DNA of 32,802 nt from a virus: the IMG/VR virus record IMGVR_UViG_3300025585_000026. The stretch is one strand, 5' to 3'. The translations under genes and the position numbers were made by a program. The notes below the pieces were generated by a model. It was not told where the DNA came from. It ran no database searches and worked only from the letters and a program-made list of their open reading frames with translations. This document shows, piece after piece, positions 2,893 to 31,535 of the stretch. Positions within the stretch are counted from its first letter, which is position 1. Every line of letters starts with the position of its first letter.

Positions 2893-3099
2893 CTAAATAT
2901 CCTTTAAGCTCTGACAATAAACCCAGAAATCTTCCCACGTAGCCATGTTCTGATGTGGCTCTGACTTATCGCCACACTCGCTACACTCAACCCGCTGATG
3001 CTTAGGCATATCCATGTTGAACTCCTCAACAGCACCACAATGAGGGCACTTCCAGAAGTTGTCGTCAGTTTCATCCTTCATGCGGTGCTCAATTCCCAT
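2893..3099 (-). CDS. small zinc-ribbon protein
   Basis: 68 aa with two CxxC pairs (CPHCG ... CSECG). Translationally coupled on both sides. Confidence 0.6.
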   Translation of the reverse strand: MGIEHRMKDETDDNFWKCPHCGAVEEFNMDMPKHQRVECSECGDKSEPHQNMATWEDFWVYCQSLKDI

Positions 3100-3335
3100 T
3101 ACTCACCACACCAAAAACGATCATAGTCATCCTTCGTAATCGTATTGCCAAACCGTATAAACCTCACGCCACAACGCCTATACCCACAACTAAGCCAATC
3201 ATTATAACTCGCATACGCACTTACATGGTCGCACTTAGGACAACGGTAATAGTATAGAATAGCTATTGGCTTCCTACGGAACCCTGCATCTCTAATAGGA
3301 TTGCGTTTCAAGGTCGTCTCACAAAAGGAAGGCAC
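3099..3335 (-). CDS. small Cys-rich (zinc-ribbon-like) protein
   Basis: 78 aa with CPKCDH and SCGYRRCG motifs. GTG start. The stop overlaps the next ATG (TAATG). Confidence 0.5.
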   Translation of the reverse strand: MPSFCETTLKRNPIRDAGFRRKPIAILYYYRCPKCDHVSAYASYNDWLSCGYRRCGVRFIRFGNTITKDDYDRFWCGE

Positions 3336-3494: not shown

Positions 3495-4004
3495 CTACTC
3501 CTCCTCAGATTCCGTATCGTTTTTAAGATACCTCTGCTCAAATTCTTCACGACTCAACGGCTTGGCTGACACAACAGCGTTTATAGTCCCAACATGCTCA
3601 ACAGTATTAGCCTCAGTCCAACCTAACTTACTCTTACCCAAATACATCAACACCTGCGGGTTACCTGCCATAGCCTGTTCCATCAACCCTCTAGCAACAA
3701 CCTCCTGCATGCCAGCCTGACCAGCCGCATACTCCTCGCCATACCACTTCGTCAGTTCCTGCGGACTCAACCTACTAGCTATAGCTACAGCACTCTTACT
3801 CAACCCAAGTTTCGCAAGCCTCGTAACCATCGCACTCGTCTCAGCATCCTTCTCATACCGCTGATTGCTGTAGTCCTTCCTACGAGGTGGATTGATAACA
3901 ATCGGCTTAGGCTCAATTACTACTTCGCCAATTTTTATAACTTCAGACTCGCTAGAATCGACGGCTGGTTTTGAATCGAAATCGGAATCAGTTTCGTGGC
4001 TCAT
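3495..4004 (-). CDS. terS: putative terminase small subunit (HTH DNA-binding)
   Basis: 169 aa. Acidic N-terminus, an HTH-like segment (LAKLGLSKSAVAIASRLSPQELTKW) and a GNPQVLMYLGKSKLGWTE motif resembling the conserved ...FxLKNRxGWxD segment of TerS families. First gene of the late strand, upstream of terL. Confidence 0.6.
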   Translation of the reverse strand: MSHETDSDFDSKPAVDSSESEVIKIGEVVIEPKPIVINPPRRKDYSNQRYEKDAETSAMVTRLAKLGLSKSAVAIASRLSPQELTKWYGEEYAAGQAGMQEVVARGLMEQAMAGNPQVLMYLGKSKLGWTEANTVEHVGTINAVVSAKPLSREEFEQRYLKNDTESEEE

Positions 4005-4893: not shown

Positions 4894-4927
4894 TGGCTTG
4901 TGGTTAAGAGATTACCTCTCACCAAAT

Positions 4928-4944
4928 GGAGACTACGACTATGA
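4928..4944 (+). promoter_or_regulatory. conserved translation-initiation cassette GGAGACTACGACTATGA, copy 1
   Basis: Identical 17-mer containing the SD, spacer and ATG. Other copies are at 5157, 5470 and 5734. Confidence 0.7.
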
Positions 4945-5156
4945 AACATCGACAATACAGTGACGACTCAGGCGAGCTGGTTTTTCATGAGTATACAATT
5001 TTTACGGGTAGCAAAGAGGCTGCGATTGATGCGGCTACGACAGCACAACCACTGTTCAGCGAAGGACCAGGACATAAATTCTGTAAGGTTGACAATGTTG
5101 CAAAGCTATCGCCGACAGCTTGGTTGGTAACTTTGGTAATTGGTTGGGACGTATAA
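4941..5156 (+). CDS. hypothetical early protein
   Basis: 71 aa starting at the ATG preceded by GGAGA. The track start at 4926 is an in-frame ATG lying inside the SD cassette. Confidence 0.6.
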   Translation: MKHRQYSDDSGELVFHEYTIFTGSKEAAIDAATTAQPLFSEGPGHKFCKVDNVAKLSPTAWLVTLVIGWDV

Positions 5157-5173
5157 GGAGACTACGACTATGA
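5157..5173 (+). promoter_or_regulatory. conserved translation-initiation cassette, copy 2
   Basis: GGAGACTACGACTATGA, exact. Confidence 0.7.
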
Positions 5174-5463
5174 CATACAAAGTAACCATTCTGATGAATG
5201 CAGAGGCTGTGGCTACCTACTCAGCTTCAACACTCGGCTACGCATACAAGACGGCTAAAGAGGCTTTGTTCACTTGGGGCTCTGGCGTAGTTGTTGAAAT
5301 TCACAACGGCAAATACCGTGAAATCTTTGAAGGAACAAACGACAGGCTCAAGTGGTGCGGTAGGGACGTTGGCAACAGTCATTACTATCGCAGCGAGTCT
5401 GGAGAGTTGTGCTGCTTATATATGGGCAGTGGGTCAGACCGTGAGAATTTTGGCTTTAATTAA
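5170..5463 (+). CDS. hypothetical early protein
   Basis: 97 aa (MTYKVTILMNAEAV...). Start chosen at the SD-preceded ATG. Confidence 0.6.
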   Translation: MTYKVTILMNAEAVATYSASTLGYAYKTAKEALFTWGSGVVVEIHNGKYREIFEGTNDRLKWCGRDVGNSHYYRSESGELCCLYMGSGSDRENFGFN

Positions 5464-5469
5464 CATCAA

Positions 5470-5486
5470 GGAGACTACGACTATGA
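5470..5486 (+). promoter_or_regulatory. conserved translation-initiation cassette, copy 3
   Basis: GGAGACTACGACTATGA, exact. It shares 22 nt with copy 4. Confidence 0.7.
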
Positions 5487-5734
5487 CTAATCCAATCACA
5501 GAGCAAGAGCTTGAGCGTTGGCGTAATGAGTACAGCAACCACACCAAGCAGACTGTCAACACTAGGCAGTTGCGGAAGAACATGCGGTTACTGAGTAAAG
5601 ACGAGTTACGGCAACTGTCGCAAGCAAACATTAACCTCATCTCGCAGCTTGCAGAGCAAGTGCTGTCTGAGAAAGAAGTTAAGAAGAACAAGAAGCATTT
5701 AGCAAGTTTACTCAACATTACACTTAATAGTTAG
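5483..5734 (+). CDS. hypothetical early protein (helical, Lys/Gln-rich)
   Basis: 83 aa (MTNPITEQELERWRNEY...). The 147-aa track ORF from 5291 overlaps the previous gene out of frame, so the internal SD-preceded ATG is preferred. Confidence 0.6.
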   Translation: MTNPITEQELERWRNEYSNHTKQTVNTRQLRKNMRLLSKDELRQLSQANINLISQLAEQVLSEKEVKKNKKHLASLLNITLNS

Positions 5735-5750
5735 GAGACTACGACTATGA
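5734..5750 (+). promoter_or_regulatory. conserved translation-initiation cassette, copy 4
   Basis: GGAGACTACGACTATGA, exact. Confidence 0.7.
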
Positions 5751-5926
5751 CTAATTTGATGGATTTACAAAAAGCAATCTATTTGCTGATTGAGCATCGC
5801 AATGGATACGCAAGTTATTCACCTGAGCAAGTTTATGAAGCCAAGCGTTGCTTACTTGAATCAGGTTACTTTGCGCAATGGTATCAAGACGAGACAGGGC
5901 ATTGGAGCCTAGAGGTAAGAAAATAA
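5747..5926 (+). CDS. hypothetical early protein (59 aa, below the ORF-track cutoff)
   Basis: My translation is MTNLMDLQKAIYLLIEHRNGYASYSPEQVYEAKRCLLESGYFAQWYQDETGHWSLEVRK, ending at TAA. It carries the same SD cassette as the three upstream genes. Confidence 0.55.
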   Translation: MTNLMDLQKAIYLLIEHRNGYASYSPEQVYEAKRCLLESGYFAQWYQDETGHWSLEVRK

Positions 5927-5936
5927 GGAGACAAAC

Positions 5937-6029
5937 ATGACAATTATCGAACACCTTGGACAACTGGCAGTATGCCTAGTGCTATTTGGCACTTGGTACC
6001 TCATCCTCGTAGCTTTCTGGAGTTTCTAG
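5937..6029 (+). CDS. putative 30-aa membrane peptide
   Basis: AAGGAGAcaaacATG. The product MTIIEHLGQLAVCLVLFGTWYLILVAFWSF has one hydrophobic helix. The stop lies 2 nt before the next ATG. Confidence 0.4.
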   Translation: MTIIEHLGQLAVCLVLFGTWYLILVAFWSF

Positions 6030-6031
6030 TT

Positions 6032-6403
6032 ATGAAAACAAGTATTCGCCTGATTTTGTATACAATACTTGCAATTAGACCAACTATTGCGAGTGCTCAA
6101 ACTTACAGTGAGTTAATGCAGGAGGTCTTAGCAGAGAAGCAAGGTTACTACGCTGATGTTGTAGCACCGCAGCCAATAGTTCCAGTTGTACCTGTAGTTC
6201 CTGCGTACCCTCGTAACCTGATACCACCAAATCCGTATGGAACGGGTTATAGCATTGTGACAACCCAGACAACTCAGCCTAACTATGTCCAGCAGTACCT
6301 CGGTATTCGTGGAGCTACGAGCAATGTGACAGTGACAAGCGTAGTACCTAACAATGCTTGGGGTGCTCCACTTAGACCACCAATCCTGTTCCCGTATCCC
6401 TAA
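6032..6403 (+). CDS. secreted proline-rich protein (Sec signal peptide)
   Basis: 123 aa from the internal ATG. MKTSIRLILYTILAIRPTIASA|QT has n/h/c regions and an AxA cleavage site. The mature part is Pro/Val-rich (PQPIVPVVPVVPAYP). Confidence 0.6.
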   Translation: MKTSIRLILYTILAIRPTIASAQTYSELMQEVLAEKQGYYADVVAPQPIVPVVPVVPAYPRNLIPPNPYGTGYSIVTTQTTQPNYVQQYLGIRGATSNVTVTSVVPNNAWGAPLRPPILFPYP

Positions 6404-6407
6404 GCCA

Positions 6408-6426
6408 AGGGTTACGCAGTAAGCCA
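6408..6426 (+). promoter_or_regulatory. 19-nt conserved box AGGGTTACGCAGTAAGCCA, copy 2
   Basis: Exact repeat of 4813-4831. It ends 32 nt upstream of TTGACT at 6459 and is followed by ACTTTTT. Confidence 0.5.
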
Positions 6427-6458
6427 ACTTTTTCACAATTCGTGAAACCGTAGGATTG

Positions 6459-6501
6459 TTGACTACATCCTATGTACACATAGTAGTTAATTTGTTAAAT
6501 A
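6459..6501 (+). promoter_or_regulatory. candidate promoter region for the envelope-protein cassette
   Basis: TTGACT at 6459-6464 lies inside the inverted repeat TAGGAT-N10-ATCCTA (6451-6472). The alternative is TGTACA (6473-6478) -17 nt- TTAAAT (6496-6501). The -10 assignment is ambiguous. Confidence 0.3.
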
Positions 6502-6517
6502 GTTAATTGGAGACATT

Positions 6518-6793
6518 ATGAAACGACTAATTCTTGTAGTGACAATAGCAACTTGTAGCGGCTGTGGAGTTATCTTACCTGACGTAATGCTCGTAGGTAC
6601 CGAGCAAGGCATCCGTGCTTATAACGATGGGCAGTCTGCGCTCATCGCTCAAAGTAAGACCCAAAATAAGAACCAAGAGACTCCGTACTGGTCAAATAGA
6701 CGAGTGCAATCTGGTTACAGCTTTTGGGACCGTCTTAGCCATGGCTTTATCGCTACTAGCAAACCACAGGAGGTACCAACCGATGCTCAGTAA
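6518..6793 (+). CDS. putative lipoprotein / secreted protein
   Basis: 91 aa. MKRLILVVTIATCSGCG has a basic n-region, a hydrophobic core and Cys residues in a lipobox-like context. Confidence 0.55.
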   Translation: MKRLILVVTIATCSGCGVILPDVMLVGTEQGIRAYNDGQSALIAQSKTQNKNQETPYWSNRRVQSGYSFWDRLSHGFIATSKPQEVPTDAQ

Positions 6794-7016
6794 ATCACTA
6801 ACATGGTTCCTCACTACGTCTACAATCGTAGGCGTACCCGTGACAATCGCCATACTGCTAATCGGCATCGAGCGTTCAATACATACGCTCACATGCGAGA
6901 CTGCAAGATATGGCTGTAACAGAAGTTTTACCCAGTCAGTAGACTACATTGCCGAACAGGTCGATGAGGATACTGATGTAGTAATAACACCAAAAAAGAG
7001 TAAATTTACGAAGTAA
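6783..7016 (+). CDS. single-pass membrane protein
   Basis: 77 aa from the ATG that overlaps the upstream stop. One TM helix (WFLTTSTIVGVPVTIAILLIGI). The longer track ORF from 6615 overlaps the previous gene out of frame. Confidence 0.5.
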   Translation: MLSKSLTWFLTTSTIVGVPVTIAILLIGIERSIHTLTCETARYGCNRSFTQSVDYIAEQVDEDTDVVITPKKSKFTK

Positions 7017-7032
7017 ATTAAGGAGATAAACC

Positions 7033-7299
7033 ATGACTAAAATAACAGAGAAAGCGATGGAGTTTTTCTATCGTGATGATGAAGCAAGCAAGATGCTAAA
7101 TGCGTTGCTAGAGGACGGCAAACCATGTCGTGTCATTGCTGCGGCTCTTGAGGAGTACATGAACCAACTTAATAGGTTTGAACTAATGGGAATATACCAT
7201 CAGCTTCAAGTTCATGTAGTGGATGCTACGGACTGGGATGAGGTAGCAAACCGAGCACTATGTGATTGGTACGGCGCTCACTCAGACAATAACTGCTAA
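7033..7299 (+). CDS. hypothetical protein
   Basis: 88 aa with a strong SD (AAGGAGAtaaaccATG). Confidence 0.6.
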   Translation: MTKITEKAMEFFYRDDEASKMLNALLEDGKPCRVIAAALEEYMNQLNRFELMGIYHQLQVHVVDATDWDEVANRALCDWYGAHSDNNC

Positions 7300-7320
7300 T
7301 AAAACAAGGAGAATAAGACT

Positions 7321-7980
7321 ATGAATGATGCAATTTTTAAGGCGTTTATCGCCGCACAGAAAGAGTTTGGACCAGCTCTAAAGACCAGCACCAACCCACA
7401 CTTTAGATCACGCTATGCAGACCTTTCAGCGTGTGTTGAAGCTGTAATCGATGCGCTCAATTCTAATGGCTTAGGATTGGTTCAGGTAACTCATCCTTGC
7501 GAGTCAGGAGTAAGCGTTGAGACAGTTTTGGTACATGAGTCTGGACAAACCATGACAAGTGGCGTGTTACATGTACCAGCTTCAAAGCAAGATGCTCAAG
7601 GCTATGGGTCAGCACTGACATACGCTCGCAGATATAGCTTAATGGCAATCTGCGGCATTGCTCCAGAGGATGATGACGGAAACAAGGCGAGCAAACCTAT
7701 TGAGGTTAAAACTAAAGACATAAAAGTTGAGCGTGTCTCAGTAGTTAATAAGGCAACAGGAGAAGTAACTGAGGTACTCAATACCACTAAAAAGTCACGG
7801 ATTGAGAAAACGATCTATGACATCAGGACACTCGCCGAAGAACAGCAACCAGCAGCAGCAGAATATCTGCGGCAACACAGTTGCGAGTATAGCGAAGCAC
7901 TCGGAGTCTGGACCTGCCCAATCAGACTTCAACGGCTTCAAAGTTGCGTAGTTGAGAAGGTGGCTAATGAAAAGGCTTAG
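7321..7980 (+). CDS. erf: ERF-family single-strand annealing recombinase
   Basis: 219 aa. NPHFRSRYADLSACVEAV and GYGSALTYARRYSLMAICGI match the conserved Erf core motifs (compare P22 Erf ...GKYKYRS... and ...TSSYARKYCLNGLFGI). Confidence 0.85.
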   Translation: MNDAIFKAFIAAQKEFGPALKTSTNPHFRSRYADLSACVEAVIDALNSNGLGLVQVTHPCESGVSVETVLVHESGQTMTSGVLHVPASKQDAQGYGSALTYARRYSLMAICGIAPEDDDGNKASKPIEVKTKDIKVERVSVVNKATGEVTEVLNTTKKSRIEKTIYDIRTLAEEQQPAAAEYLRQHSCEYSEALGVWTCPIRLQRLQSCVVEKVANEKA

Positions 7981-8182
7981 AGTAGAAATACCTAAAAAAC
8001 CAAAACAATTACGGCGTTATGATGCACCGCGTCCTGGATATAGGCGTTGGACAACTCAAGTAAAACTAGAATTGTTCAATGATTTCTGCAAAGTAGCAGA
8101 GAATGAGGATAAGGTACTGATTGACGCTGTTGAAGAAGCACTTAGTAACTGGACATACCATGATGGAGACGTACATGAATAA
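7967..8182 (+). CDS. hypothetical protein, possible ribbon-helix-helix fold
   Basis: 71 aa from the ATG overlapping the erf 3' end. RWTTQVKLELFNDFCKVAENEDKVLIDAVEEAL fits a strand-helix-helix pattern. Confidence 0.4.
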   Translation: MKRLRVEIPKKPKQLRRYDAPRPGYRRWTTQVKLELFNDFCKVAENEDKVLIDAVEEALSNWTYHDGDVHE

Positions 8183-8420
8183 GCATATCGCATTAGAAGC
8201 TCTAGGATACGTTTTAAGCAAAGATAGATACCTTGGTGATGGTCGGATAGCCATGAGGGAAAAGAAAGCCTACACGGCTGGCGTAGAGGCTATAAAAGGC
8301 ATATTGGCTAATAGACTGGATAGACTTCTGTGGAAAGCTGAAAAGAGTAACACAGACTACGACCGTGCTAGGCTAGATGGCGCACTGTGGTTGTATGAGG
8401 TTTTAGAGGACGAAGAATAA
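8175..8420 (+). CDS. hypothetical protein
   Basis: 81 aa. GGAGAcgtacATG, with the ATG overlapping the upstream stop (ATGAATAA). Confidence 0.55.
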   Translation: MNKHIALEALGYVLSKDRYLGDGRIAMREKKAYTAGVEAIKGILANRLDRLLWKAEKSNTDYDRARLDGALWLYEVLEDEE

Positions 8421-8425
8421 CAAAC

Positions 8426-8501
8426 TGGCTAGTAGTTCAGTTGGTAGAACAGACGGCTGTTAACCGTCATGTCGTAGGTTCGAGTCCTACCTAGCCAGCC
8501 A
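8426..8501 (+). tRNA. tRNA-Asn: tRNA-Asn (anticodon GTT), CCA encoded
   Basis: Manual cloverleaf. Acceptor TGGCTAG/CTAGCCA, D-stem GTTC/GAAC, anticodon stem GACGG/CCGTC with loop CTGTTAA, 5-nt variable loop, T-arm GTAGG-TTCGAGT-CCTAC, discriminator G, then CCA. Confidence 0.92.
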
Positions 8502-8568
8502 AAAAAATACCCTGCATTAAACTCAGGTCGTATGGCACATCCATGCCATTCCGAATTTAGTGCAGGGT
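8502..8568 (-). terminator. Rho-independent terminator of the minus-strand cassette (compound hairpin + T7 run)
   Basis: On the minus strand, ACCCTGCACTAAA...TTTAATGCAGGGT (13-bp stem including one G-U pair, with inner stem ATGGCA/TGCCAT) is followed by TATTTTTTT. Confidence 0.6.
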
Positions 8569-8636
8569 CAAACCTCGATGACTAGTCGAAGTTTCTTGGA
8601 GACATGGAAAGACCATGACTCAGCTAAGGTACCATC

Positions 8637-9113
8637 TCAAAACCGCTTCTTCAATCCGAACCTCTCAGCAGCTTCATTAACTTTATCTAAGTTTGGTTTT
8701 GGTTGTTCTCTTTGTAATTTATCTTTGTAGTTGGATCTTTGTATATGGATCTTTGTATTGGTTCTTTTTGACCCAGGTTGTTGGTTCAATTTGACCCCCC
8801 CACTGGTCCAATTTGACCCAGGTAGGCGGTCATTTTGACCCAGGTTAGGCACTGTTTTTAGTGTCCGTTTCATGCCTCGATAGCTAATTTCTAGGTATCC
8901 TAAATCAACAAGAGTTTTGATTACTCTCCTAACCGTTGACTCGCTCATCCCAAGTTCTGCAGATATGTGCGCTCGACTCGCAAAGCATGACAATCCTTGC
9001 GCTTCAAATTCAGAAACATAGGCAAGTAGAACAGCCTCATCTCTGCCTACTGTTTTTGATATGCGTTTGTTGACCTTGAAAAAAAGGTCATCGTCTGATA
9101 ATTTATTTTTCAT
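8637..9113 (-). CDS. winged-helix DNA-binding protein, candidate replication initiator (ori lies inside its gene)
   Basis: 158 aa. wHTH segment SRAHISAELGMSESTVRRVIKTLVDLGYLEI, then a low-complexity linker encoded by the iteron array, then a basic C-terminus. Confidence 0.6.
   Translation of the reverse strand: MKNKLSDDDLFFKVNKRISKTVGRDEAVLLAYVSEFEAQGLSCFASRAHISAELGMSESTVRRVIKTLVDLGYLEISYRGMKRTLKTVPNLGQNDRLPGSNWTSGGVKLNQQPGSKRTNTKIHIQRSNYKDKLQREQPKPNLDKVNEAAERFGLKKRF
8708..8758. repeat. AT-rich 13/14-bp direct repeats (DNA-unwinding-element-like), two containing GATC
   Basis: (A/C)TCTTTGTA at 8708, 8721, 8735 and 8749. The exact 12-mer GGATCTTTGTAT occurs at 8733-8744 and 8747-8758. The period is not a multiple of 3. 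Confidence 0.55.
8765..8847. repeat. iteron array: four TTTGACCCAGGT-type repeats at 22-23 bp spacing
   Basis: Cores at 8767, 8790 (degenerate TTTGACCCCCCC), 8812 and 8834. The copies are read in three different frames (NLGQN / PGSN / GGVKL / PGSK). Confidence 0.65.
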
Positions 9114-9145
9114 AGAGGAACAATTCCTTTAGCACCATTCAAAAG

Positions 9146-9180
9146 CCACTCATTCCCGCCAAGGTATCGAGTGGTTTTTT
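9146..9180 (+). terminator. hairpin + T6 run between the two minus-strand genes (plus-strand terminator or attenuator)
   Basis: CCACTC-N17-GAGTGG followed by TTTTTT on the plus strand. The minus-strand reading gives only CTTTTG after the stem. Confidence 0.4.
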
Positions 9181-9374
9181 CATTCCTTGTTTCTATTCTT
9201 CAGCCATTCTTCAACTTCACTTAACTTGAAACGTCTGGACTTTCTAATCCGTAACATCGGCATGCCCTGACGAATCAGTATTTCAATCATTGGTCTTCCT
9301 ACCTTGAAATGTTCGATCACTTTGTGTAAGTCGACATAAGGTTCTAATTGTTTTGTATTGTCTTCCATAGTCAT
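9180..9374 (-). CDS. excisionase/AlpA/MerR-type HTH DNA-binding protein
   Basis: 64 aa. YVDLHKVIEHFKVGRPMIEILIRQGMPMLRIRKSRRFKLSEVEEWL matches the HTH_17-type pattern (short HTH, then a beta wing, then ...W). Confidence 0.6.
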   Translation of the reverse strand: MTMEDNTKQLEPYVDLHKVIEHFKVGRPMIEILIRQGMPMLRIRKSRRFKLSEVEEWLKNRNKE

Positions 9375-9416
9375 GGATGATATGAACTTCCTGTTTAATA
9401 ATCAATGAGGAATTAC

Positions 9417-9719
9417 ATGGCACGACCATTACAAACATGGAAAAACAAGGGTATCGACATAGCCGCATGGAGTACCAAGAACGGCGGTATATCGTTCACC
9501 ATTCGCAAGACGTATAAACCAAAAGATGCAAACGAGTGGCAGGAAACTAAGACGTTCTTCCCAAACGACCTAGCTGTTCTCGCTGATCTCATCAAGCAAG
9601 CTACAACCTGGGCACACGAGGAGTTTGGCGAACCTGTACCACAGATTGATACACGTCCTCCGCATCCCAAGGTCGCCGCTATCGTGAAAGAGATTGTAGA
9701 GGATGACATACCCTTTTAG
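9417..9719 (+). CDS. small protein with SSB-type C-terminal tip (EDDIPF), putative non-canonical ssDNA-binding protein
   Basis: 100 aa from the GAGGAattacATG start. The C-terminus ...KEIVEDDIPF mimics the bacterial SSB tip DDDIPF. The N-terminal ~60 aa lack the canonical SSB OB-fold motifs. Confidence 0.6.
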   Translation: MARPLQTWKNKGIDIAAWSTKNGGISFTIRKTYKPKDANEWQETKTFFPNDLAVLADLIKQATTWAHEEFGEPVPQIDTRPPHPKVAAIVKEIVEDDIPF

Positions 9720-9736
9720 CTTACTTGGAGACGACT

Positions 9737-10213
9737 ATGAGACTAGACCATGGAGAGGCATTTACAGCCGCTATAGCAGGGTTACAGCGGCAATTTAGAG
9801 CCATTCAGCGCAATGCTACCGACAACCAAGGCGATATAACCAGAGACGAATTTGCCACTAATATCCACGGCGCTATAGCAGAAGCGACAGTAGCAAAGGC
9901 ACTAGGCTTGTACTGCAATATGAGCAGTTCAGACCGTGCTGTAGCTGACGTTGGGCACAATATCGAGGTGAGAAGCAGCACCAATCCAAAGGCACTGATG
10001 CCAATACGCCACCGAGATAAGGATGATGCCAAATACTACTTTGTGGTTGGCATATATCCCAATCTTAAAATCATCGGCTGGCGTTGGGGTAGAGACTGCA
10101 AGCAAGATAGGTACTTGGTAGATAGAGACAAGGCAGGTAATAAATTGGAAAGACCATATTGGGCAGTACCGCAATCAGACCTAAACCCTGAGCTTATCGA
10201 GGTGGTACTATGA
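9737..10213 (+). CDS. putative PD-(D/E)XK-type nuclease
   Basis: 158 aa. GAIAEATVAKALG ... ADVGHNIEVRSS gives a D-x(n)-E-x-(K/R) arrangement. SD variant GGAGACGACTATGA. Confidence 0.45.
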   Translation: MRLDHGEAFTAAIAGLQRQFRAIQRNATDNQGDITRDEFATNIHGAIAEATVAKALGLYCNMSSSDRAVADVGHNIEVRSSTNPKALMPIRHRDKDDAKYYFVVGIYPNLKIIGWRWGRDCKQDRYLVDRDKAGNKLERPYWAVPQSDLNPELIEVVL

Positions 10214-10452
10214 AGATTTACAGTCTCCACACTATCACTGACGGCAAGTGGCAAGTTCGTCTAACTATCCGAGAGAACGATGATTTTAAGCACCGTTACG
10301 AGTCTAGACCAGACCTTCGTGCTCTGGTTGATACTTTCTATGACTCGCCTCCAGAGGAACTAGCACGGATTATTTTAGAGAATGTACTGTCATGCGAGTC
10401 AGTCGAGGTATCTCTGATGTGTGGTCCTGGCATTTACATGGAGCGCACATGA
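10210..10452 (+). CDS. hypothetical protein
   Basis: 80 aa with an ATGA overlap to the upstream gene. Confidence 0.55.
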   Translation: MKIYSLHTITDGKWQVRLTIRENDDFKHRYESRPDLRALVDTFYDSPPEELARIILENVLSCESVEVSLMCGPGIYMERT

Positions 10453-10640
10453 GAAAGTCAGCAGAGGAACTAGCTAAAGAGTACGTTGACTCGCTACCAC
10501 TAGGGCAATACGGCAAAGAGTTTGACGCCTTTATCGCTGGCTTTATAGCGTGCTTAGAAAATTGGAAATGGTATGACAAAGGTGAATCTAGACGAGACGA
10601 TACAGAAGCGGTTTCCAGCCTCGATGTTCCCAAGCGTTGA
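10449..10640 (+). CDS. hypothetical protein
   Basis: 63 aa from GGAGcgcacATG, overlapping the upstream stop. The track start at 10392 is out of frame with, and overlaps, the previous gene. Confidence 0.5.
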   Translation: MRKSAEELAKEYVDSLPLGQYGKEFDAFIAGFIACLENWKWYDKGESRRDDTEAVSSLDVPKR

Positions 10641-10797
10641 CGAGCAAACAATGGTTCAGCTTTACCGTGCGTATAGCTGTGGTTTTAAAGAAGGCTACGG
10701 ACTCTCGCATCCTGCTGTTATAATCGACATGGGTAATAAGCCAACCTTAGGAGAACTATTACATGCCGCTGAACAAAAAAGGTCTCAAGATTCGTAG
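10624..10797 (+). CDS. hypothetical protein (start uncertain: 10573, 10624 or 10651)
   Basis: Open frame ending at 10797. None of the candidate starts has a good SD. Confidence 0.4.
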   Translation: MFPSVDEQTMVQLYRAYSCGFKEGYGLSHPAVIIDMGNKPTLGELLHAAEQKRSQDS

Positions 10798-10900
10798 CGC
10801 AATGGAAAAGTTTTACGGCAAGAAGAAAGGTGACGAAATCTTTTACGCTTCCGAAAACAAAGGCACCATCAAAGGCGTAACTAAGAAGAAGAAAAAGTAA
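10763..10900 (+). CDS. 45-aa lysine-rich protein (below the ORF-track cutoff)
   Basis: AGGAGAactattacATG. Product MPLNKKGLKIRSAMEKFYGKKKGDEIFYASENKGTIKGVTKKKKK. The stop overlaps the next ATG (TAATG). Confidence 0.5.
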   Translation: MPLNKKGLKIRSAMEKFYGKKKGDEIFYASENKGTIKGVTKKKKK

Positions 10901-11163
10901 TGCCACAGGAAAGCAACATTCGCAAAAGTCTTGAACGACAAGTAAGCCTGAACAGACCTTTTCGTACTCCTGGCGAACGGAAAAAGTTTGCTGTGTACGT
11001 TAAGAATGAGAAGGGCAACGTAATTAAGGTGCGTTTTGGCGATCCAGAAATGAAGATTCGCAAAAACGAACCAGCTCGCCGCAAAAGTTTTAGAGCACGA
11101 CACAACTGCGACAGTCCTGGACCAAAAACAAAGGCTAGGTATTGGTCGTGCAGAAATTGGTAA
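10900..11163 (+). CDS. small basic conserved-looking protein of unknown function
   Basis: 87 aa. The string RPFRTPGERKKFAVYVKNEKGNVIKVRFGDPEMKIRKNEPARRKSFRARHNCDSPGPKTKARYWSC resembles a recurrent phage/virus family as far as I recall. This is unverified. Confidence 0.6.
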   Translation: MPQESNIRKSLERQVSLNRPFRTPGERKKFAVYVKNEKGNVIKVRFGDPEMKIRKNEPARRKSFRARHNCDSPGPKTKARYWSCRNW

Positions 11164-11543
11164 TGAGACAGAAACGACCGCTGCGGCGACCAGAGGAACA
11201 AGAACAAACGGCGTTTTTCGATTATTGTAGAGCTATGGCGCATGTTCATAGTGGCTATGCTTTGGCGTTTGCCATTCCAAACGAGCGTAAAGCCTCTATA
11301 CAGCGCCGTGTTGCAATGAAACGAGCAGGTCTTACTAAAGGTGTACCTGACATTTGCGTGCCTGTAGGCAATGATAAATTCAATGCCTTGTATATTGAAA
11401 TGAAGGTTAAGCCCAACCGTGCTAGTCCAGAACAGATGGACATACTCCGCAAGTTAAACGCTGTAGGTAACTACGCTGTGATTTGCTGGTCGGCTGATGA
11501 TGCAATCGAAATCATAACTAAGTACATCAATAATCAGTTATGA
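11163..11543 (+). CDS. VRR-NUC domain nuclease
   Basis: 126 aa. EEQEQTAFFDY...AFAIPNE...GLTKGVPDICVP...LYIEMKV...SPEQ...L is the VRR-NUC PD-(D/E)XK signature (E...PN...G.PD...E.K). Confidence 0.8.
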   Translation: MRQKRPLRRPEEQEQTAFFDYCRAMAHVHSGYALAFAIPNERKASIQRRVAMKRAGLTKGVPDICVPVGNDKFNALYIEMKVKPNRASPEQMDILRKLNAVGNYAVICWSADDAIEIITKYINNQL

Positions 11544-12019
11544 AGCACGACATGGGAAACACAGAACAAGAAAAGGAATACCATGAAGTGCCAGAACGCA
11601 ATCTTTGGTTTGCAGTCATTGAGCGAGCGTTAAAAGATTACTGCTACTTCTTTGATAGACTTATCAACCCAGGCTCAACGCATCTCGTATACTCAGACGG
11701 TCTAAATCATAAAGACCAGTTTCAACTCAAAGCTATATACGAGTTTAACCGCCTACGTTGGTTTCTATTTGAGAAAGAGCCAGCAGAGTTCAACCTAGCC
11801 TACCTTGCTGATCAACTATACGAGGATGGAGACGGTGCCGCTGCAAGCATCCGTAAGGAAGCTATTCGGCAATTCAAAACTCACTTTGATGAAGCAGAGC
11901 GTCGTGGGCAATTCATGAAGATAATACACTACATCAAAGAGAATACTGGCGTAGCGTACTCAGAAGCAGCGGATAAGGTAAGCCCGTTACGCACCAAGCG
12001 ATACAGGCTTAGTCGCTAG
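11540..12019 (+). CDS. hypothetical protein (last gene of the plus-strand block)
   Basis: 159 aa with an ATGA overlap to the upstream gene. Confidence 0.6.
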   Translation: MKHDMGNTEQEKEYHEVPERNLWFAVIERALKDYCYFFDRLINPGSTHLVYSDGLNHKDQFQLKAIYEFNRLRWFLFEKEPAEFNLAYLADQLYEDGDGAAASIRKEAIRQFKTHFDEAERRGQFMKIIHYIKENTGVAYSEAADKVSPLRTKRYRLSR

Positions 12020-13213: not shown

Positions 13214-13598
13214 AGATTTCTAGCTCCGCTTCACTATACGTATTCATAGCAGTCATGAAATTAGCGAGAGCTGCACGGCTAGAAAGAATCGCCGTTTCTG
13301 TGCCTATCGTTCCGTACATAAGACCAAGCAAAATACATCCGTGCGTATCCTCTTTGGTGTTACCAGCATGAATAAGTATCTGGCTACGTCCTGGGACATC
13401 CATTACTTGGAATACTCGTCCAAACTTAGGCGAGTTATGAATCTTAATCTTGTACTTGCCAGCAGGAATACAACTTTGCTGCGGCTCGTTATCAAACCAA
13501 CGGTCCTCAAGCGTAACAAACATAGGACGAGCATCAAGGCATAACACGCCAAGCATGGCATCTTTATACTCTGATACTCGTACTAATTTGAGCTTCAT
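13200..13598 (-). CDS. DUF5675-like / YkuD-like (His...Gly-Cys motif) protein, candidate cell-wall enzyme
   Basis: 132 aa. TLEDRW..N...SCIPAGKYKI....SPKFGRVFQV.DVPGRSQILIHAGNTKEDTHGCILLG matches the recurrent phage family I recall as DUF5675, with an L,D-transpeptidase-like H-x-G-N...GC motif. Confidence 0.55.
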   Translation of the reverse strand: MKLKLVRVSEYKDAMLGVLCLDARPMFVTLEDRWFDNEPQQSCIPAGKYKIKIHNSPKFGRVFQVMDVPGRSQILIHAGNTKEDTHGCILLGLMYGTIGTETAILSSRAALANFMTAMNTYSEAELEICDGR

Positions 13599-15019
13599 GC
13601 TTCTAGTGCCAAGACACGAGCTTCAAGAGCTTCAACTTTGGCGTTTAGTTCTTTAATTGCAGCGGTCAGAATTGGCGTAATCTTGCCGTAGTCAACTCCT
13701 TGGTATTTAGGTTGTCCGTTTTCGTCAATATCATCTTTTATGCCGGAAACAGCGTGAGGAAAGACTTCTGCGACTTCATGGGCGATAAAGCCTTCGGATG
13801 ATTCAGAGCTGTCAATCCAATCGAATGAAACGGGCTTTAGCTGCAACGTCCTTTGCAATCCGTCGGCTATCGGTGCTACGTTTTCCTTTAATCTATAATC
13901 AGACGAGGTATTATAATTTACAGCGTTCGTGGTCGTAACTCGTGTAACAGATCCGCAAATTCCATTTGTTGAGTTTCTAAAAACTGCGAAGGTAGTACCG
14001 CTGGTGTCGTTGTTGTCTCTGATGCCAAGACCATTTTGAGTCGCATCATACGCAAGGCACATTCTATCTGCGCTAAAATTGGTGGTAGTATTTACGAATA
14101 GAAAACCTCCGGCAGTAATTCGCATCCGTTCGCTAGCGGTGCCTGCGCCATCTGCTGTTGTAGCAAAGGTAATACGTCCAGGCATATCATTTGAAGCGCC
14201 AGGAGTTCCGTCACACCATCCAGCAACGTATGCGGCTTCCGTAAATCCTGTCCCGTTCGCACCGGAAAAACGTAAAACGCCTAAAATATCTCCGCTTTGC
14301 ACAATGGTATTAGTGCCAACAGTAGCACCACGAGATTTTGCAAAATCTATTTGAGTTCCTCCGGTATCAGCACTAAATCTAGTAATTTGACAGCGAGTAG
14401 CTGTACCAGCTACCTCAAAGTCATAAGTCGGCGCAGTAGTCCCAATACCTACACGATTGTTAGTGCGATCTACAAACAATGGAGCTTCTGCAATGTTTGT
14501 AATTTGGAAGTTAGTTCCATCATAAACAACACTAACCATGTCGTTGGCTTTAAACTCATTACCAGCAAGTGCAGTTCCCTGACGCTGCATAGTTGTTGCA
14601 GCAGTTCCATCAATCTTTAATGTAGCTGCGGCACCGTTAGCTGCGTTAGCTTTAAACACATATTGAGCACCAGTTGTAAGAGCTGTAATGGTTGGCGTAG
14701 CTGTTACAGTAAATGCTGTGGATGTTCCACCAGTAGTACCAAGATATGAAGATGTATTGTCTTGTACTTGAGCTACAGTAGCAGCATCATTTCTAGCTGT
14801 TCCAGCACCAACATTAGTTATGCGATTAGCACCAAGATTAAGATTACCAGTAGCAGCGTTAGAACCATCTTTGTTCAAGCATTGGTTAATACCATTTTGG
14901 AAGTCATCGTCCTGCGTGTCGTGGCGTCCTGCTTCAATGCCGATACCTAGCGAAGCATCGCCAGTCCAACCGTTAGTGCCGTAGTTTCCTTTGCGGTATG
15001 TTCCACCTGACCAGCCCAT
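13595..15019 (-). CDS. tail fibre with C-terminal intramolecular chaperone (peptidase S74) domain
   Basis: 474 aa. The C-terminal ~102 aa, SDYRLKENVAPI...LKPVSFDW...GFIAHEVAEVFPHAV...YQGVDYGKITPILTAAIKELNAKVEALEARV, is the autoproteolytic chaperone signature. The N-terminus shows a tail-fibre pattern (GINQCLNKDGSNAATGNLNLGANRITNVGAGTARNDAATVAQVQ). Confidence 0.88.
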   Translation of the reverse strand: MGWSGGTYRKGNYGTNGWTGDASLGIGIEAGRHDTQDDDFQNGINQCLNKDGSNAATGNLNLGANRITNVGAGTARNDAATVAQVQDNTSSYLGTTGGTSTAFTVTATPTITALTTGAQYVFKANAANGAAATLKIDGTAATTMQRQGTALAGNEFKANDMVSVVYDGTNFQITNIAEAPLFVDRTNNRVGIGTTAPTYDFEVAGTATRCQITRFSADTGGTQIDFAKSRGATVGTNTIVQSGDILGVLRFSGANGTGFTEAAYVAGWCDGTPGASNDMPGRITFATTADGAGTASERMRITAGGFLFVNTTTNFSADRMCLAYDATQNGLGIRDNNDTSGTTFAVFRNSTNGICGSVTRVTTTNAVNYNTSSDYRLKENVAPIADGLQRTLQLKPVSFDWIDSSESSEGFIAHEVAEVFPHAVSGIKDDIDENGQPKYQGVDYGKITPILTAAIKELNAKVEALEARVLALEA

Positions 15020-15026
15020 AAATCAC

Positions 15027-17306
15027 CTATGCTTTACCCAATACAGACTTTATATTTACGCCTAACTCTTGAGGATCAAGATTTAAAGCATTTACAATAT
15101 CACCAACCGTAAACTTTTGCTTAGAACCGTACTTTGCTAAAACTTTGTCTAGTTTTGATTGACCAACAGCATCTGCAATTTTAGCTAAATCATAATCATC
15201 ATACTTTGACAGATTCTTATCTGTCGTGGTTCTAACTATATCACTTTCTGCAACCGTATTATTTGAATACTCGTTACGCTTTGTGATTACTTTGCTTACA
15301 TATTTCCTAGTCTCTGCTGGAACGTATGCTACTTCTAAAATGTTTTCCCAAGTTGGTTTCAATCCTTCTTTCTGCGTTCTAGCAATAGCTCGTTGCAGAT
15401 TACCTGGACCCCAATTATATGCTGCCAATGCTAGTTTCTCATCGCCAAACTTATCCATCATTTGATTGATATAGCGTGTGCCACCTTCAATGTTCTGCAC
15501 TGGATCTGTTGGGTCTACGCCAAGTGATTTAGCAGTCGCTGGCATTAACTGCATCAAGCCAGTAGCTCCTTTCTTGCTTTTAGCTTGAGGCTTACCAGCA
15601 GATTCAGTCTGAATAATAGCTTTGATAAGCGGAGGTTGATTGCCGATCAAATCACTGATGTTTTGTTTTTCAGGAACAACAACTTGCCTACCAAGCGTAC
15701 CAAGTAGTTTTTCAACTTCATCAGCAGTAAATGTTGGGGTTGGTTCTTTTGGAACTTCAACTAACTTGCCACTTGTAGTTAGTTCTAACTTTGTTTCAGA
15801 AGGCTTAATGTAAGGCGTAGCAAGTTGAGCAAATGTTCTGCCAGTACCACCTTCAGTAAGAGCATATCCAAGTTTAGATGCTATCTGCTGAACTGCTGGA
15901 TCCTCCATGATTGTAGCAAGATAGTTTTTGCCAGCTTGTGAGCGTCCAGCTTGCATCAATGCGCCAGCAAGCGCAGGAACAACATTACCGCTTTGAGTGC
16001 TCATTTGTGCAAGGGTACCAGCACCACCAGATGTTCTAGCCTGTCCAGCAATATCCTCCATCACATTACCAGACAAAACTTTTCCAGCTTTGCCAAGGAA
16101 CGCAGTTGATAAATCAGCAGCATCGCCAAATTGTTTGTTAAGTGTTTTGACAGTTTGTAGAGCTTCTTCTGGAACTTTGCCAAGTTTAGCCAATATTCCA
16201 AGTCTATTCTCTATCTCCTCTCGCAAATCTTGTCTGATTGCTTTTTGTACTGTTGGAGTGAGAGGACTCTGATCCCAAGCATAGTTAAGACCAGTTTTTG
16301 CTTTTTGCAAATCAAGCAAACTACCACCTTCCTCAAACTGAGAAATGATAGCATCTCGCTCTTTCGTTATTAGCTTTTGCGCTTCTTCCTTCGCAGTACC
16401 ACCAAGATTAGAAAGGTACTTGTTTACATTCTTCATTTGGAAATCTGCAAATGGGTCTGCAAGTTTATTTGCATCCTCAAGTACAGTTCCAAGTTCGGCA
16501 CCAAGTGTACGCTTATAAACCTCGATGTTTGCAGCATTAGTCAAAACATCTGCTTCGGGATTTATAAGACCTTTGCTCTCCAAAGACTTTAATGTTTGAA
16601 CAACTGGAATCTTTTCCGCTGATGGAATACCAGCTTTCTTAGCTACATACTCTTTGATGTTTCTGCTTACATCCGCAGGACTAAGATTATACGCAGATAG
16701 TTTCATTCTATCAGCTTCGGTGCCAAGTCTAGTTAAAAATCTGCCACCTACATTTGAAACAACTGAGCCAGCAGTTCCAAGTGCGCCAGTAAGTAATCCA
16801 GTTGAAATCCGTGAATCTCCTTCGCCAGCTCCATATCCAGCTACAAATGCTTGTGATGGGACACTAGAAACAAGAGCTTGAACTACTTTACCACCAGGGA
16901 CACTAACAGCTTTTTCAACAACAGGCTGAACGAGTTTTCCAACAGTGCTAGTAGCAGTTCCAGTTTTGCCAACTTGTCCGATAGCTCCAAGAGGATTAAG
17001 AACTAATCCACTCGCAATAGGTAATGCAGTTGAAACTACTGGCGATGATGCAGAAAACGCTTTGTTTTGAGCAGCTATATCAGCCAACTCTTGCTCATAA
17101 GAGCGACCAGAAAACAATGAAGCAACTTTAGCCTCTGCCTCATCTGCAAGATTAAATGTTGGTCCTGCTAAATAAGAACGAGCATAGCCAAGCACCTTAT
17201 CAAGCGTTGGTCCATAAGATGTAGGAGCAACTGTAGGAGTAACAGGCTTTCCAAGTGCCGCTAACGATGCTTCAATATCCGCTGCTTGATTATTTGGATC
17301 CGCCAT
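15027..17306 (-). CDS. internal virion protein with lytic transglycosylase (SLT) domain
   Basis: 759 aa. IIQTESAGKPQAKSKKGATGLMQLMPATAKSLGV...GGTRYINQMMDKFGDEKLALAAYNWGPGN is the SLT catalytic E-S ... GLMQ ... AYN signature, at roughly nt 15385-15615. Confidence 0.85.
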   Translation of the reverse strand: MADPNNQAADIEASLAALGKPVTPTVAPTSYGPTLDKVLGYARSYLAGPTFNLADEAEAKVASLFSGRSYEQELADIAAQNKAFSASSPVVSTALPIASGLVLNPLGAIGQVGKTGTATSTVGKLVQPVVEKAVSVPGGKVVQALVSSVPSQAFVAGYGAGEGDSRISTGLLTGALGTAGSVVSNVGGRFLTRLGTEADRMKLSAYNLSPADVSRNIKEYVAKKAGIPSAEKIPVVQTLKSLESKGLINPEADVLTNAANIEVYKRTLGAELGTVLEDANKLADPFADFQMKNVNKYLSNLGGTAKEEAQKLITKERDAIISQFEEGGSLLDLQKAKTGLNYAWDQSPLTPTVQKAIRQDLREEIENRLGILAKLGKVPEEALQTVKTLNKQFGDAADLSTAFLGKAGKVLSGNVMEDIAGQARTSGGAGTLAQMSTQSGNVVPALAGALMQAGRSQAGKNYLATIMEDPAVQQIASKLGYALTEGGTGRTFAQLATPYIKPSETKLELTTSGKLVEVPKEPTPTFTADEVEKLLGTLGRQVVVPEKQNISDLIGNQPPLIKAIIQTESAGKPQAKSKKGATGLMQLMPATAKSLGVDPTDPVQNIEGGTRYINQMMDKFGDEKLALAAYNWGPGNLQRAIARTQKEGLKPTWENILEVAYVPAETRKYVSKVITKRNEYSNNTVAESDIVRTTTDKNLSKYDDYDLAKIADAVGQSKLDKVLAKYGSKQKFTVGDIVNALNLDPQELGVNIKSVLGKA

Positions 17307-21080: not shown

Positions 21081-21671
21081 TTAAATGTTTCCTCTATAAA
21101 ATGGAGACTGTGGCATCATTGTTTGTTGTTGTAACTGTTGTTGGTTGTCAGAAAACTGTTGGTTTTGCAGCATTGCTGGACCTTTGCCAAGACCAGCTAT
21201 TCCTTGTCCAAATCCATTTTGGAAATAATTGAAATTTTCATTTTGCATTGGGAATTGCATGGACGCTGGTTGATTATACATTCCAGTAAGCTCATTAAAA
21301 TTAGGAGTGCCGCCAGTGTAATACATAGCCTGTTCATCTTGTGGTAACGGTGCTGGTGGTCGGAATGTTGGTTGTTGTGGCTGCTGTCCAGGCATAGCTT
21401 GGAATGGAGGTTGTGGTCGTTGCTGTGGCTGTGGTCGCTGTTGTGGTCGTTGACCAGGCAAAGCACCACCAGATGAATTAACAAGCTGACCTTGTTGATT
21501 GCGATATACGCCAGGAGATAGACGTTGCAATCCTTTATTTTGTCCAATTCCTTGTGCTATTCCAGCCATAATACCACTTGGTGGTGGCTTGCCTACTGGC
21601 AATGATGTTACTCGTCCACCTCGTGGCGCTGCTGCTAATGCTCCTTTCAATGCTGTTCCTTTTGCTGCCAT
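21081..21671 (-). CDS. Gln/Pro-rich low-complexity virion protein
   Basis: 196 aa from the ATG at 21671 (AAGGActatATG). The track start at 21695 is a TTG. Contains QRPQQRPQPQQRPQPP. Confidence 0.5.
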   Translation of the reverse strand: MAAKGTALKGALAAAPRGGRVTSLPVGKPPPSGIMAGIAQGIGQNKGLQRLSPGVYRNQQGQLVNSSGGALPGQRPQQRPQPQQRPQPPFQAMPGQQPQQPTFRPPAPLPQDEQAMYYTGGTPNFNELTGMYNQPASMQFPMQNENFNYFQNGFGQGIAGLGKGPAMLQNQQFSDNQQQLQQQTMMPQSPFYRGNI

Positions 21672-31109: not shown

Positions 31110-31535
31110 CTATATAGAGAAAATGCCTGAAGCGTTGAAGGTTACGGTGATATTACCGCCGTTTGGAGTAACAGGGAGTCCACTTGCGGCAACATCAATG
31201 AAACAGATAAGTGGACTTGTTCCTGCTGTTCCTGTGTCTTTAAAGATGATCAGTGCTTCCACACTGACTCCTGTGACGGAAGTAAAAGTTACATCTGCTG
31301 CATCGAATGTACCGCTTGTAACTGACTTTGAGCCGAGTGTTTGTGCAGTTCCTACCAACGCACTAGAAGCCGAAGTCCAAAACTCATCCGCTGCGTTGTA
31401 GGTGTAGGTGCCGGTATCGATGAGCGCAATTTTGATTGTGTCATCAATGAGGTCAACGGCGGAGCCTGATGTAATGCCGAGTGTGCCTGGGTTAAGAATT
31501 TTCTCTTTGTATTTTGGATAGAGTACGTTTGTCAT
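31110..31535 (-). CDS. hypothetical beta-rich virion-module protein
   Basis: 141 aa. Starts 1 nt after the portal stop. Confidence 0.5.
   Translation of the reverse strand: MTNVLYPKYKEKILNPGTLGITSGSAVDLIDDTIKIALIDTGTYTYNAADEFWTSASSALVGTAQTLGSKSVTSGTFDAADVTFTSVTGVSVEALIIFKDTGTAGTSPLICFIDVAASGLPVTPNGGNITVTFNASGIFSI

Follow-up and report, generated by a model that had tools for sequence, protein, structure and literature searches.

The window analysed here is a stretch of viral DNA of 32,802 nucleotides (IMG/VR record IMGVR_UViG_3300025585_000026). On its minus strand lies a gene for a protein of 158 amino acids (aa) whose coding sequence, past the part that specifies a winged helix-turn-helix (wHTH) domain, is occupied by two adjoining arrays of short DNA repeats: four iterons and, next to them, an A/T-rich block of four 13/14-mers. 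The gene has that of a small HTH_17 protein on one side, beyond which a protein with a tail like that of SSB, the protein that binds single-stranded DNA, is divergently encoded, and a convergent tRNA-Asn gene on the other (coordinates are collected in Table 1). It opposes its surroundings, as initially annotated, being a minus-strand gene set between plus-strand runs at ~4926-8420 and 9405-12019. We regard it as probable that 8709-8847 is the replication origin of this phage, situated inside the gene of its own cognate initiator. The initial annotation had proposed as much, taking the layout of lambda O and its origin as a model; the proposal now finds support, by comparison, in protein family matches, in the order and polarity of the elements, in relatives and in frozen synonymous sites.

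Two repeat arrays inside one gene

On the strand of the gene the four iteron units read CCTGGGTCAAAATGACCGCCTA, CCTGGGTCAAATTGGACCAGTG, GGGGGGTCAAATTGAACCAACAA and CCTGGGTCAAAAAGAACCAAT, and they lie 22, 22 and 23 bp apart. An exact 12-mer, TTTGACCCAGGT, begins at 8767, 8812 and 8834, its sole three occurrences in the window even with two mismatches allowed; the fourth copy, TTTGACCCCCCC, begins at 8790. (All four starts, and their spacing of 23/22/22 bp, had been given in the initial annotation and were re-found in the sequence.) The core or consensus, GGGTCAAAWTGRACC, is matched on the minus strand at four sites in 8760-8841 with 0-2 mismatches; outside the array it has three matches with three mismatches each, which is the chance level. 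The core is partly palindromic and has a central A-tract. One unit, GGTCAAAATGACC, has perfect 5-bp arms, and two units match GGGTCAAAWTGRACC on the plus strand too, a sign of dyad symmetry, the others being imperfect.

The 13/14-mers follow directly downstream of the iterons in the direction of the gene and read, on the coding strand, ACAAAGATCCATAT, ACAAAGATCCAACT, ACAAAGATAAATT and ACAAAGAGAACAA. The element TCTTTGTA is found at 8709, 8722, 8736 and 8750 (spacings 13/14/14), and just one further copy, at 31504, turns up in the whole 32.8 kb; Tandem Repeats Finder assigns the block a period of 14 and 4.4 copies. The two copies of GGATCTTTGTAT, at 8733 and 8747, both contain a GATC. The earlier description of an AT-rich block adjoining the iterons, with four repeats spaced at 13/14 bp and two exact copies bearing GATC, accordingly stands. 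The block is strongly strand-asymmetric, with 38 A and 9 T among 67 nt of the coding strand, and in stability it ranks with the lowest 0.3% of windows of 40-60 nt (z ~2.8). GATC as such is under-represented across the window (60 found, 96 expected); the 151-nt putative origin has two, or 13/kb, as against 1.8/kb elsewhere. A four-copy family arose in 0/2000 shuffles of the iteron block and in 0/2000 of the 13/14-mer block, and at least four copies of a 10-mer (at most one mismatch) within 94 nt are found, genome-wide, at these two arrays only. Neither period is divisible by three, so that successive copies fall into different reading frames; the iterons are translated as NLGQN, PGSN, GGVKL and PGSK and the 14-mers as TKI, IQRS, YKD and LQRE, just as had been listed initially.

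The protein translated from this DNA is composed of a wHTH (aa ~21-89), a linker encoded by the putative origin (aa ~89-138), and then a short helix followed by FGLKKRF. In the AlphaFold2 (AF2) model, residues 21-89 have a predicted local distance difference test score (pLDDT) of 81-90 and the topology H-H-H-β-β, residues 92-121 fall below 50, and a helix spans 142-151; the iteron-encoded residues 92-121 are thus predicted to be disordered. Pfam HTH_36 (PF13730) matches residues 40-74 with 29.4 bits against a cut-off of 25 (E = 6.9e-7), and relatives of the protein score 24-37 bits. Of the PHROG families, those matched best, at 1.8e-9 to 1e-6, are 'replication initiation protein', 'replication initiation O-like' and 'DnaD-like helicase loader', each in the N-terminal part of a profile of 300-455 positions; DNA-binding helix-turn-helix (HTH) families match as well. 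Among viral structure models (BFVD), Foldseek retrieves phage HTH proteins, 'replication initiator' proteins and one 'replication protein O'; a sequence search of PDB yields a weak wHTH match only (1tbx, E = 0.011). A match to RP-C is restricted to the HTH (24.5 bits), and NCBIfam RepC reaches 19 bits against a cut-off of 150. DnaD_N stays at 21.2 bits, under its cut-off of 27, and a C-terminal domain of DnaB_2 type is lacking; the protein does not belong with the organisers of DnaD type. Rep_3 does not match and the model shows a single wHTH, not two winged helices in tandem; nor does the protein belong with the Reps of the iteron-plasmid kind. A tblastn search with the protein found no match in the GenBank phage and plasmid collections.

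Relatives and their iteron classes

An exhaustive profile search brought together 162 representative proteins at E <1e-3, of which 36 are at <1e-10; almost all of these 36 are 120-230 aa long. The DNA of relatives consisted of loci L001-L004 and 24 IMG/VR loci, some of which are duplicates or truncated, and the locus scan was built on eight sequences. Thirty database proteins that were inspected have the wHTH in common (LAYVxEFExxGxxCFASRxxIA...). Behind it come repeated peptides whose frame shifts from copy to copy (such as GIGIQ/RDRN/GSES, GIQID, GVQNE and RGQND) and often then a stretch like NTKI..IQR.NYK. In every full-length gene examined (L001-L004 and representative loci), four to seven iterons at 22/23 bp and then three or four A-rich 13-15-mers come immediately after the wing; in all, ~25 related metagenomic loci share this arrangement at the corresponding position of the gene. 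A relative that retains the protein and has lost the DNA repeats was not encountered: all keep the arrays, and the iterons co-vary with the recognition helix.

That co-variation extends over at least five classes of iterons, each of which is paired with its own sequence of helix 3, the recognition helix. GGGTCAAAATGACC goes with STVRRVIKTL in the window, GGTTCAAAATGAACC with STVQRTIKSL in L008, GGGATCGGAATCC with TRVQDVIKRL in L002, L003, L006 and (in seven copies) L028, GGGGGCACGATTAAACC with SGARYLIKRL in L009-L017, and GGGGGTACGAAATACTC with KTIQNLIKKL in L018-L025. Between classes, all the copies within an array have changed together. The 13-mers remain of ACAAAGA type, the units stay 22/22/23 and 14/14/13 bp apart, and the gene is read on in its frame; the 13-mers are nearly identical in relatives of different iteron class. 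The iterons of L008 are perfect GGTTCAAAATGAACC units, and those of the class GGGGGCAC... have no clear dyad. Such matched change over five classes is indirect support for specific binding of the iterons by the putative initiator.

The selection that acts on the repeats is selection on DNA, since third-codon positions are nearly frozen in the repeat region. In a first group of close relatives 45/78 of these positions (58%) are variable in the wHTH and 6/57 (11%) in the repeat region (p = 1e-8); the corresponding fractions in a second group are 27/82 and 2/45 (p = 1e-4). The wHTH therefore evolves as protein and the repeat region as a DNA site, and the initial claim of conservation at the level of DNA, not protein, is borne out by these frozen synonymous sites. 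The gene is nevertheless translated, because differences among relatives in the wHTH fall mostly at third-codon positions, and translation proceeds through the repeats, because the C-terminal motif is again conserved as protein. The exchanges that identify the tail as conserved at protein level are K/R and F/W (as in KFGLRKRWE and RFGLRRRF).

The motif classes of tails in the family, AAERFGLKKRF, D-D-[LI]-P-[DE], DDWNPFS/DDFCPFD and W-D...M-[IV]-R-R-[KR], are independent of iteron class (proteins P0004-P0042; loci L008, L009, L017, L018 and L023). The classes D-D-[LI]-P-[DE] and DDWNPFS/DDFCPFD resemble SSB tails, and this resemblance suggests, by way of speculation, that the tails might recruit host factors as peptide motifs.

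GATC sites cluster more densely in some relatives than in the window. In L002 and L006 the putative origin contains six in ~151-156 nt, which is ~39/kb as against 0.9-1.8/kb elsewhere, and in L028 eleven in 231 nt, or 48/kb as against 5.7/kb elsewhere. Every iteron of the GGGATCGGAATCC class contains GATC, as do two of the 13-mers. The remaining classes (ACAAAGAAT, ACTAAGA) have not conserved these sites; control by Dam and SeqA, if there is any, would therefore be lineage-specific.

A pattern scan of 185,579 bacterial and archaeal genomes in GTDB found no relative, and neither did plasmid records, so that these searches give no lead to a host or a prophage. In L001 (704-1018, plus strand; contig of L016) a 104-aa paralogue composed of the wHTH only (PFFKV...EFE...TVKRHVTALLKKG), with no repeat region, is encoded directly upstream of the mini-initiator, at the position that the HTH_17 gene has in the window; this paralogue may regulate the initiator or compete with it.

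Neighbouring genes and the phage genome

The window is a complete phage genome: bases 1-127 are identical to 32676-32802, leaving a unique length of 32,675 bp, and from this exact 127-bp overlap of its ends the genome is circularly closed or terminally redundant. A portal open reading frame (ORF) spans the junction on the minus strand (~1489 down to 1, then 32675 down to 31537), which is why no ORF was listed in 1-1486. The phage has no close relative among those deposited; the best match to its large terminase (TerL) has 41% identity, and a near-identity DNA search with 7000-11000 against GenBank phages returned the tRNA as sole match, as did Rfam. A Pfam scan covered almost every ORF of 60 aa or more, and a PHROG scan many of them; among the scanned ORFs there was no match to a helicase, a loader, a primase or a polymerase, nor to an integrase or a partition ATPase (ParA/ParM). 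Two small ORFs with paired CxxC (zinc-ribbon-like) lie at 2893-3099 and 3099-3335 on the minus strand, between the candidate small terminase (TerS) and TerL; the matching place in L001 has a similar small CxxC ORF and an ORF whose sequence looks like that of an HNH endonuclease. Structural genes contain tandem repeats at 21410-21452 and 22449-22546, whose periods are 9, 18 and 24. All these periods are divisible by three, so that the repeats seem to belong to the protein level, in contrast to those of the putative origin. The portal region has a three-copy 10-mer family only (32101-32200), where the DNA specifies a run rich in proline.

An HTH_17 gene lies upstream of the initiator gene also in L002 and L004. 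In the window, where a promoter-like site precedes it at 9405-9377 on the minus strand, it is probably co-transcribed with the initiator gene, and its product is a possible regulator. The hairpin between the two genes has a folding energy of -13.7 kcal/mol (z = -1.95), with its stem and part of its loop kept in L002 and L003, and may be a terminator or attenuator that controls initiator expression. The region 3' to the initiator gene is strongly structured (minimum free energy of -50.8 kcal/mol, z = -4.66), with three or four hairpins and an inverted repeat at 8509-8568 that has 16-bp arms; L002 and L003 have hairpins at the corresponding places, partly of different sequence. The tRNA-Asn gene is likewise convergent and directly downstream of the initiator gene in L002 (1966-2040), L006 (4223-4297) and L007 (2520-2594), and is absent from more distant members of the family.

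The divergently encoded 104-aa protein ends in EDDIPF, a tail by which SSB proteins are recognised. ORFs whose products end in DDIPF or DDLPF, such as L006 3013-3342 and L017 3082-3465, are present within 1-4 kb of the initiator gene, on the opposite strand, at 17 related loci. A single-sequence AF2 model of the 104-aa protein is poor (pLDDT 59), with a β-β-β-α pattern, and its Foldseek matches are meaningless; sequence searches of PDB with this protein and with its 162-aa neighbour came back empty. The 104-aa protein is a probable companion of the origin that binds single-stranded DNA. A gene for a strand-annealing protein is always nearby, that of Erf in the window and one of RecT/Bet type in L008, L017 and L022. 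The 162-aa neighbour (phrog_18407; 9725-10213, plus strand) follows the SSB-tail gene and has no match in Pfam; its D...E-V-R stretch suggests a nuclease of PD-(D/E)xK type. In L002 a 158-aa ORF takes the same position, beside an SSB-tail-like ORF.

Table 1. Position of the putative origin, of its gene and of other features; coordinates refer to the window unless a locus is named
Feature	Coordinates	Strand	Remarks
Putative mini-initiator gene, 158 aa	8637-9113	minus	Winged helix, predicted disordered linker, C-terminal helix and tail
Four iterons, putative initiator-binding sites	8760-8847	minus	Encode aa ~89-117
A/T-rich block, four 13/14-bp ACAAAGA(T) repeats, putative DNA-unwinding element	8709-8762	minus	Encodes aa ~118-135
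C-terminal tail coding region	8637-8708	minus	aa ~136-158, ends AAERFGLKKRF; protein-level conservation across iteron classes
GATC-rich putative origins of relatives	L002 1640-1790; L006 3890-4045; L028 3170-3400
Strongly structured 3' region	8505-8636 (to ~8640)	minus	Between initiator stop codon and convergent tRNA-Asn
tRNA-Asn (GTT)	8426-8501	plus	Complete phage-borne gene, convergent with initiator gene
Hairpin AAAAAACCACTCG-(loop with TTGGCGGG)-TGAGTGGCTTTT	9139-9178	minus	CCACTCG...TGAGTGG, A-run/T-run flanks; between HTH_17 and initiator genes
HTH_17 (excisionase/MerR-like) gene, 64 aa	9180-9374	minus	Pfam HTH_17 8.3e-4; PHROG HTH/excisionase families
104-aa protein ending EDDIPF (SSB-type C-terminal tail)	9405-9719	plus	Divergent from initiator unit; no family match
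Erf-type single-strand annealing protein	7321-7980	plus	Early gene, replication/recombination module; Pfam ERF 6.5e-21; PHROG Erf-like 2.4e-43
VRR-NUC protein	11142-11543	plus	Early gene
Large terminase (TerL)	1486-2892	minus
TerS candidate	3495-4004	minus	Upstream of TerL; syntenic in L001
Tail fibre	13595-15019	minus	Structural/lysis block
Transglycosylase-bearing virion protein	15027-17306	minus	Structural/lysis block
Major head protein	26371-27327	minus	Structural/lysis block

Weighing the origin reading

A number of observations weigh against an origin at this place. There are no DnaA boxes near the repeats. The 13-mer block is not the single minimum of helical stability, as ~6 other windows of the genome are as unstable or more so, and GC skew follows gene orientation, gives no origin signal and is uninformative. 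Against PDB, Foldseek finds only generic wHTH regulators like MarR and ArsR and does not discriminate between an initiator and a repressor. The protein ends ~20 residues after the putative origin, with no Phg_2220_C and no recognisable domain for recruiting a helicase or a loader, and no P-, DnaC- or DnaB-like gene that could serve the step from melting to helicase loading was found in the complete genome. PF04492 (Phage_rep_O), to which lambda O itself matches with 123.4 bits (5.7e-36), has no match in the protein at E <= 0.01, and alignment of the family with lambda O by hhalign gave a probability of 0.03, finding no similarity.

The remark in the initial annotation that the protein has no obvious similarity to O thus holds for lambda O itself. 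The domain, however, is in HTH_36, and HHpred results in the literature place the N-terminus of lambda O in this family too, and its C-terminus in Phg_2220_C (PMC5509034). A distant relative from the exhaustive search, P0051 (398 aa), also combines HTH_36 with Phg_2220_C. Since lambda O and P0051 share this combination, the 158-aa protein can be read as the DNA-binding half of an O-like architecture of which the second half is gone.

If the wHTH protein were instead a transcription factor that binds its own gene, the repeats could be operators, serving autoregulation or a transcriptional roadblock that limits expression of the gene or convergent transcription. Its closest solved structures are indeed MarR/ArsR-type repressors, the gene sits with that of an HTH_17 regulator at a divergent promoter region, and the co-variation of helix and repeats speaks for binding and not for what binding is for. 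Operators would, however, leave unexplained why A/T-rich 13/14-mers, constant across iteron classes, lie at a minimum of helical stability; the profile matches are to replication initiators and not to repressor families, and the conserved neighbours are SSB-tail and annealing proteins. We hold a purely regulatory role to be improbable on these grounds, and in iteron replicons autoregulation and initiation are not mutually exclusive.

The pac sites of P22, SPP1 and P1 lie inside small-terminase genes, and repeats that bear GATC are reminiscent of P1 pac. Small terminases are often wHTH proteins that recognise repeats in their own genes and, in L001, the gene considered here precedes the terminase region by ~1.7 kb and has the same orientation, so that a pac or terminase-recognition site inside the gene of a small wHTH protein has to be considered as well. 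It is rendered very improbable by the separate TerS candidate upstream of TerL, which is syntenic in L001, by the failure of the wHTH protein to match any terminase family and by the location of its gene, which in the window is part of the early Erf/SSB module and 4.6 kb away from TerS. Centromeres, too, consist of direct repeats in arrays to which small DNA-binding proteins bind, and the adjacent tRNA gene and gene for an excisionase-like HTH_17 protein bring to mind the arm-type sites of an attP; a site for partition, or one of the attP arm type, to which a temperate or plasmid-like phage would bind its wHTH and excisionase-like proteins, might look like this. We give that idea hardly any credence: no integrase, ParA/ParM or other partition nucleoside triphosphatase was found among the scanned ORFs, the 185,579 bacterial and archaeal genomes and the plasmid records hold no relative, and the tRNA is a complete phage-borne gene and not an att core.

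For the reading as an origin with its own initiator the comparison of relatives is decisive; among known systems, the locus would work as oriλ with O and SPP1 oriL with gp38 do. In oriλ, four iterons ~20-24 bp apart have internal inverted symmetry and a central A-tract (PMC7466680, PMC5043065), a strand-asymmetric A/T-rich tract follows them (PMC5043065), and the whole lies inside the initiator ORF past the N-terminal DNA-binding domain and encodes a linker, with the same order and polarity (PMC7466680). (In lambda NC_001416 the iterons are at O codons ~117-144, and transcription reaches the A/T-rich tract just after them.) The number of iterons also varies among lambda and Stx phages, four in the former and six in the latter, as it does between four and seven in the present family. 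The differences are that lambda O has 299 aa and a C-terminal domain of Phg_2220_C type (PMC5509034), whereas the 158-aa protein is without a C-terminal domain; that the present phage shows neither a P-like loader gene nor a match to PF04492; that the A/T-rich part consists here of four discrete 13/14-mers; and that the gene is a small leftward unit opposing the flanking operons. SPP1 oriL, in gene 38, similarly places direct repeats and an A/T-rich unwinding element in the gene of the origin-binding protein, gp38 (PMC6316719). SPP1 has in addition its own loader (gp39), a DnaB-type helicase (gp40) and a second origin; here no such genes were detected and there is no second array.

Iteron plasmids (RK2 oriV, P1, F, R6K and pSC101) also have replicon-specific iterons beside an A/T-rich region, with coupled specificity of iterons and initiator. 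Their initiators have two winged-helix domains (Rep_3 type), the rep gene does not contain their iterons, and DnaA boxes are usual; here there are one wHTH, partly palindromic iterons, an intragenic location and no DnaA box. Plasmid iterons bind monomeric initiators, and the A/T-rich region of RK2 contains 13-mers (PMC5043065). E. coli oriC has tandem A/T-rich repeats of 13-14 bp that start with GATC on one strand, as do GATCTTTGTATAT and GATCTTTGTATTG here, and its 13-mers carry adenine-methylation sites (PMC5043065); class-A relatives of the window, with 6-11 GATC sites in 150-230 bp of putative origin, extend the likeness. Unlike oriC, the present locus has no DnaA boxes and no initiator of DnaA type. 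The VBR1 replicon of Vibrionaceae, which has a non-coding oriV and two genes (PMC12753305), was rejected as a match.

How such an origin might work can be outlined. The 158-aa protein would be translated through the origin, and its winged helix would bind the four partly palindromic iterons, probably as dimers. Being about two helical turns apart, the iterons would present themselves on one face of the DNA, and a complex like the O-some would bend and stress the DNA and melt the adjacent A/T-rich block with its four 13/14-mers. The replisome of the host would have to be recruited, because the phage is without detectable helicase, loader, primase or polymerase; this might occur through the conserved tail (the helix and FGLKKRF), through the neighbouring SSB-tail protein, or through both. 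Later rounds would probably be recombination-dependent replication with the Erf, SSB-like and VRR-NUC proteins of the phage.

A more tentative thought, which we advance with less confidence than the origin itself and consider rather unlikely as it stands, is that these proteins form a new class of minimal initiators (150-230 aa), made of a single winged helix, an origin-encoded disordered linker and interchangeable tail motifs that replace the helicase-recruiting domain and link the origin directly to the machinery of the host. If true, this would explain how a lambda-like origin fires in a 32.7-kb phage that lacks a detectable helicase, loader, primase and polymerase, and the tail motifs could plug into the PriA, DnaB or primase partners that read SSB tails.

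What would be new in this locus is the combination of a single-domain initiator, an origin that takes up about one third of its gene, no detected loader gene, modular tails and a matched series of initiators and iterons. For uncultured aquatic phages without cultured relatives it would provide a precise, testable origin together with its cognate initiator. The family offers a natural series of at least five initiator/iteron pairs on one scaffold, with identical spacing and a common putative unwinding element, which would be useful for work on DNA recognition by wHTH proteins and on the co-evolution of origin specificity, and possibly for orthogonal replicons. An initiator consisting of one DNA-binding domain and a short tail, encoded by a genome that shows no detectable helicase loader, poses the question of how the host helicase reaches melted DNA. 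With about one third of its ORF dictated by cis-acting DNA, the gene would also be a clear case of overlapping constraints at the levels of DNA and protein.

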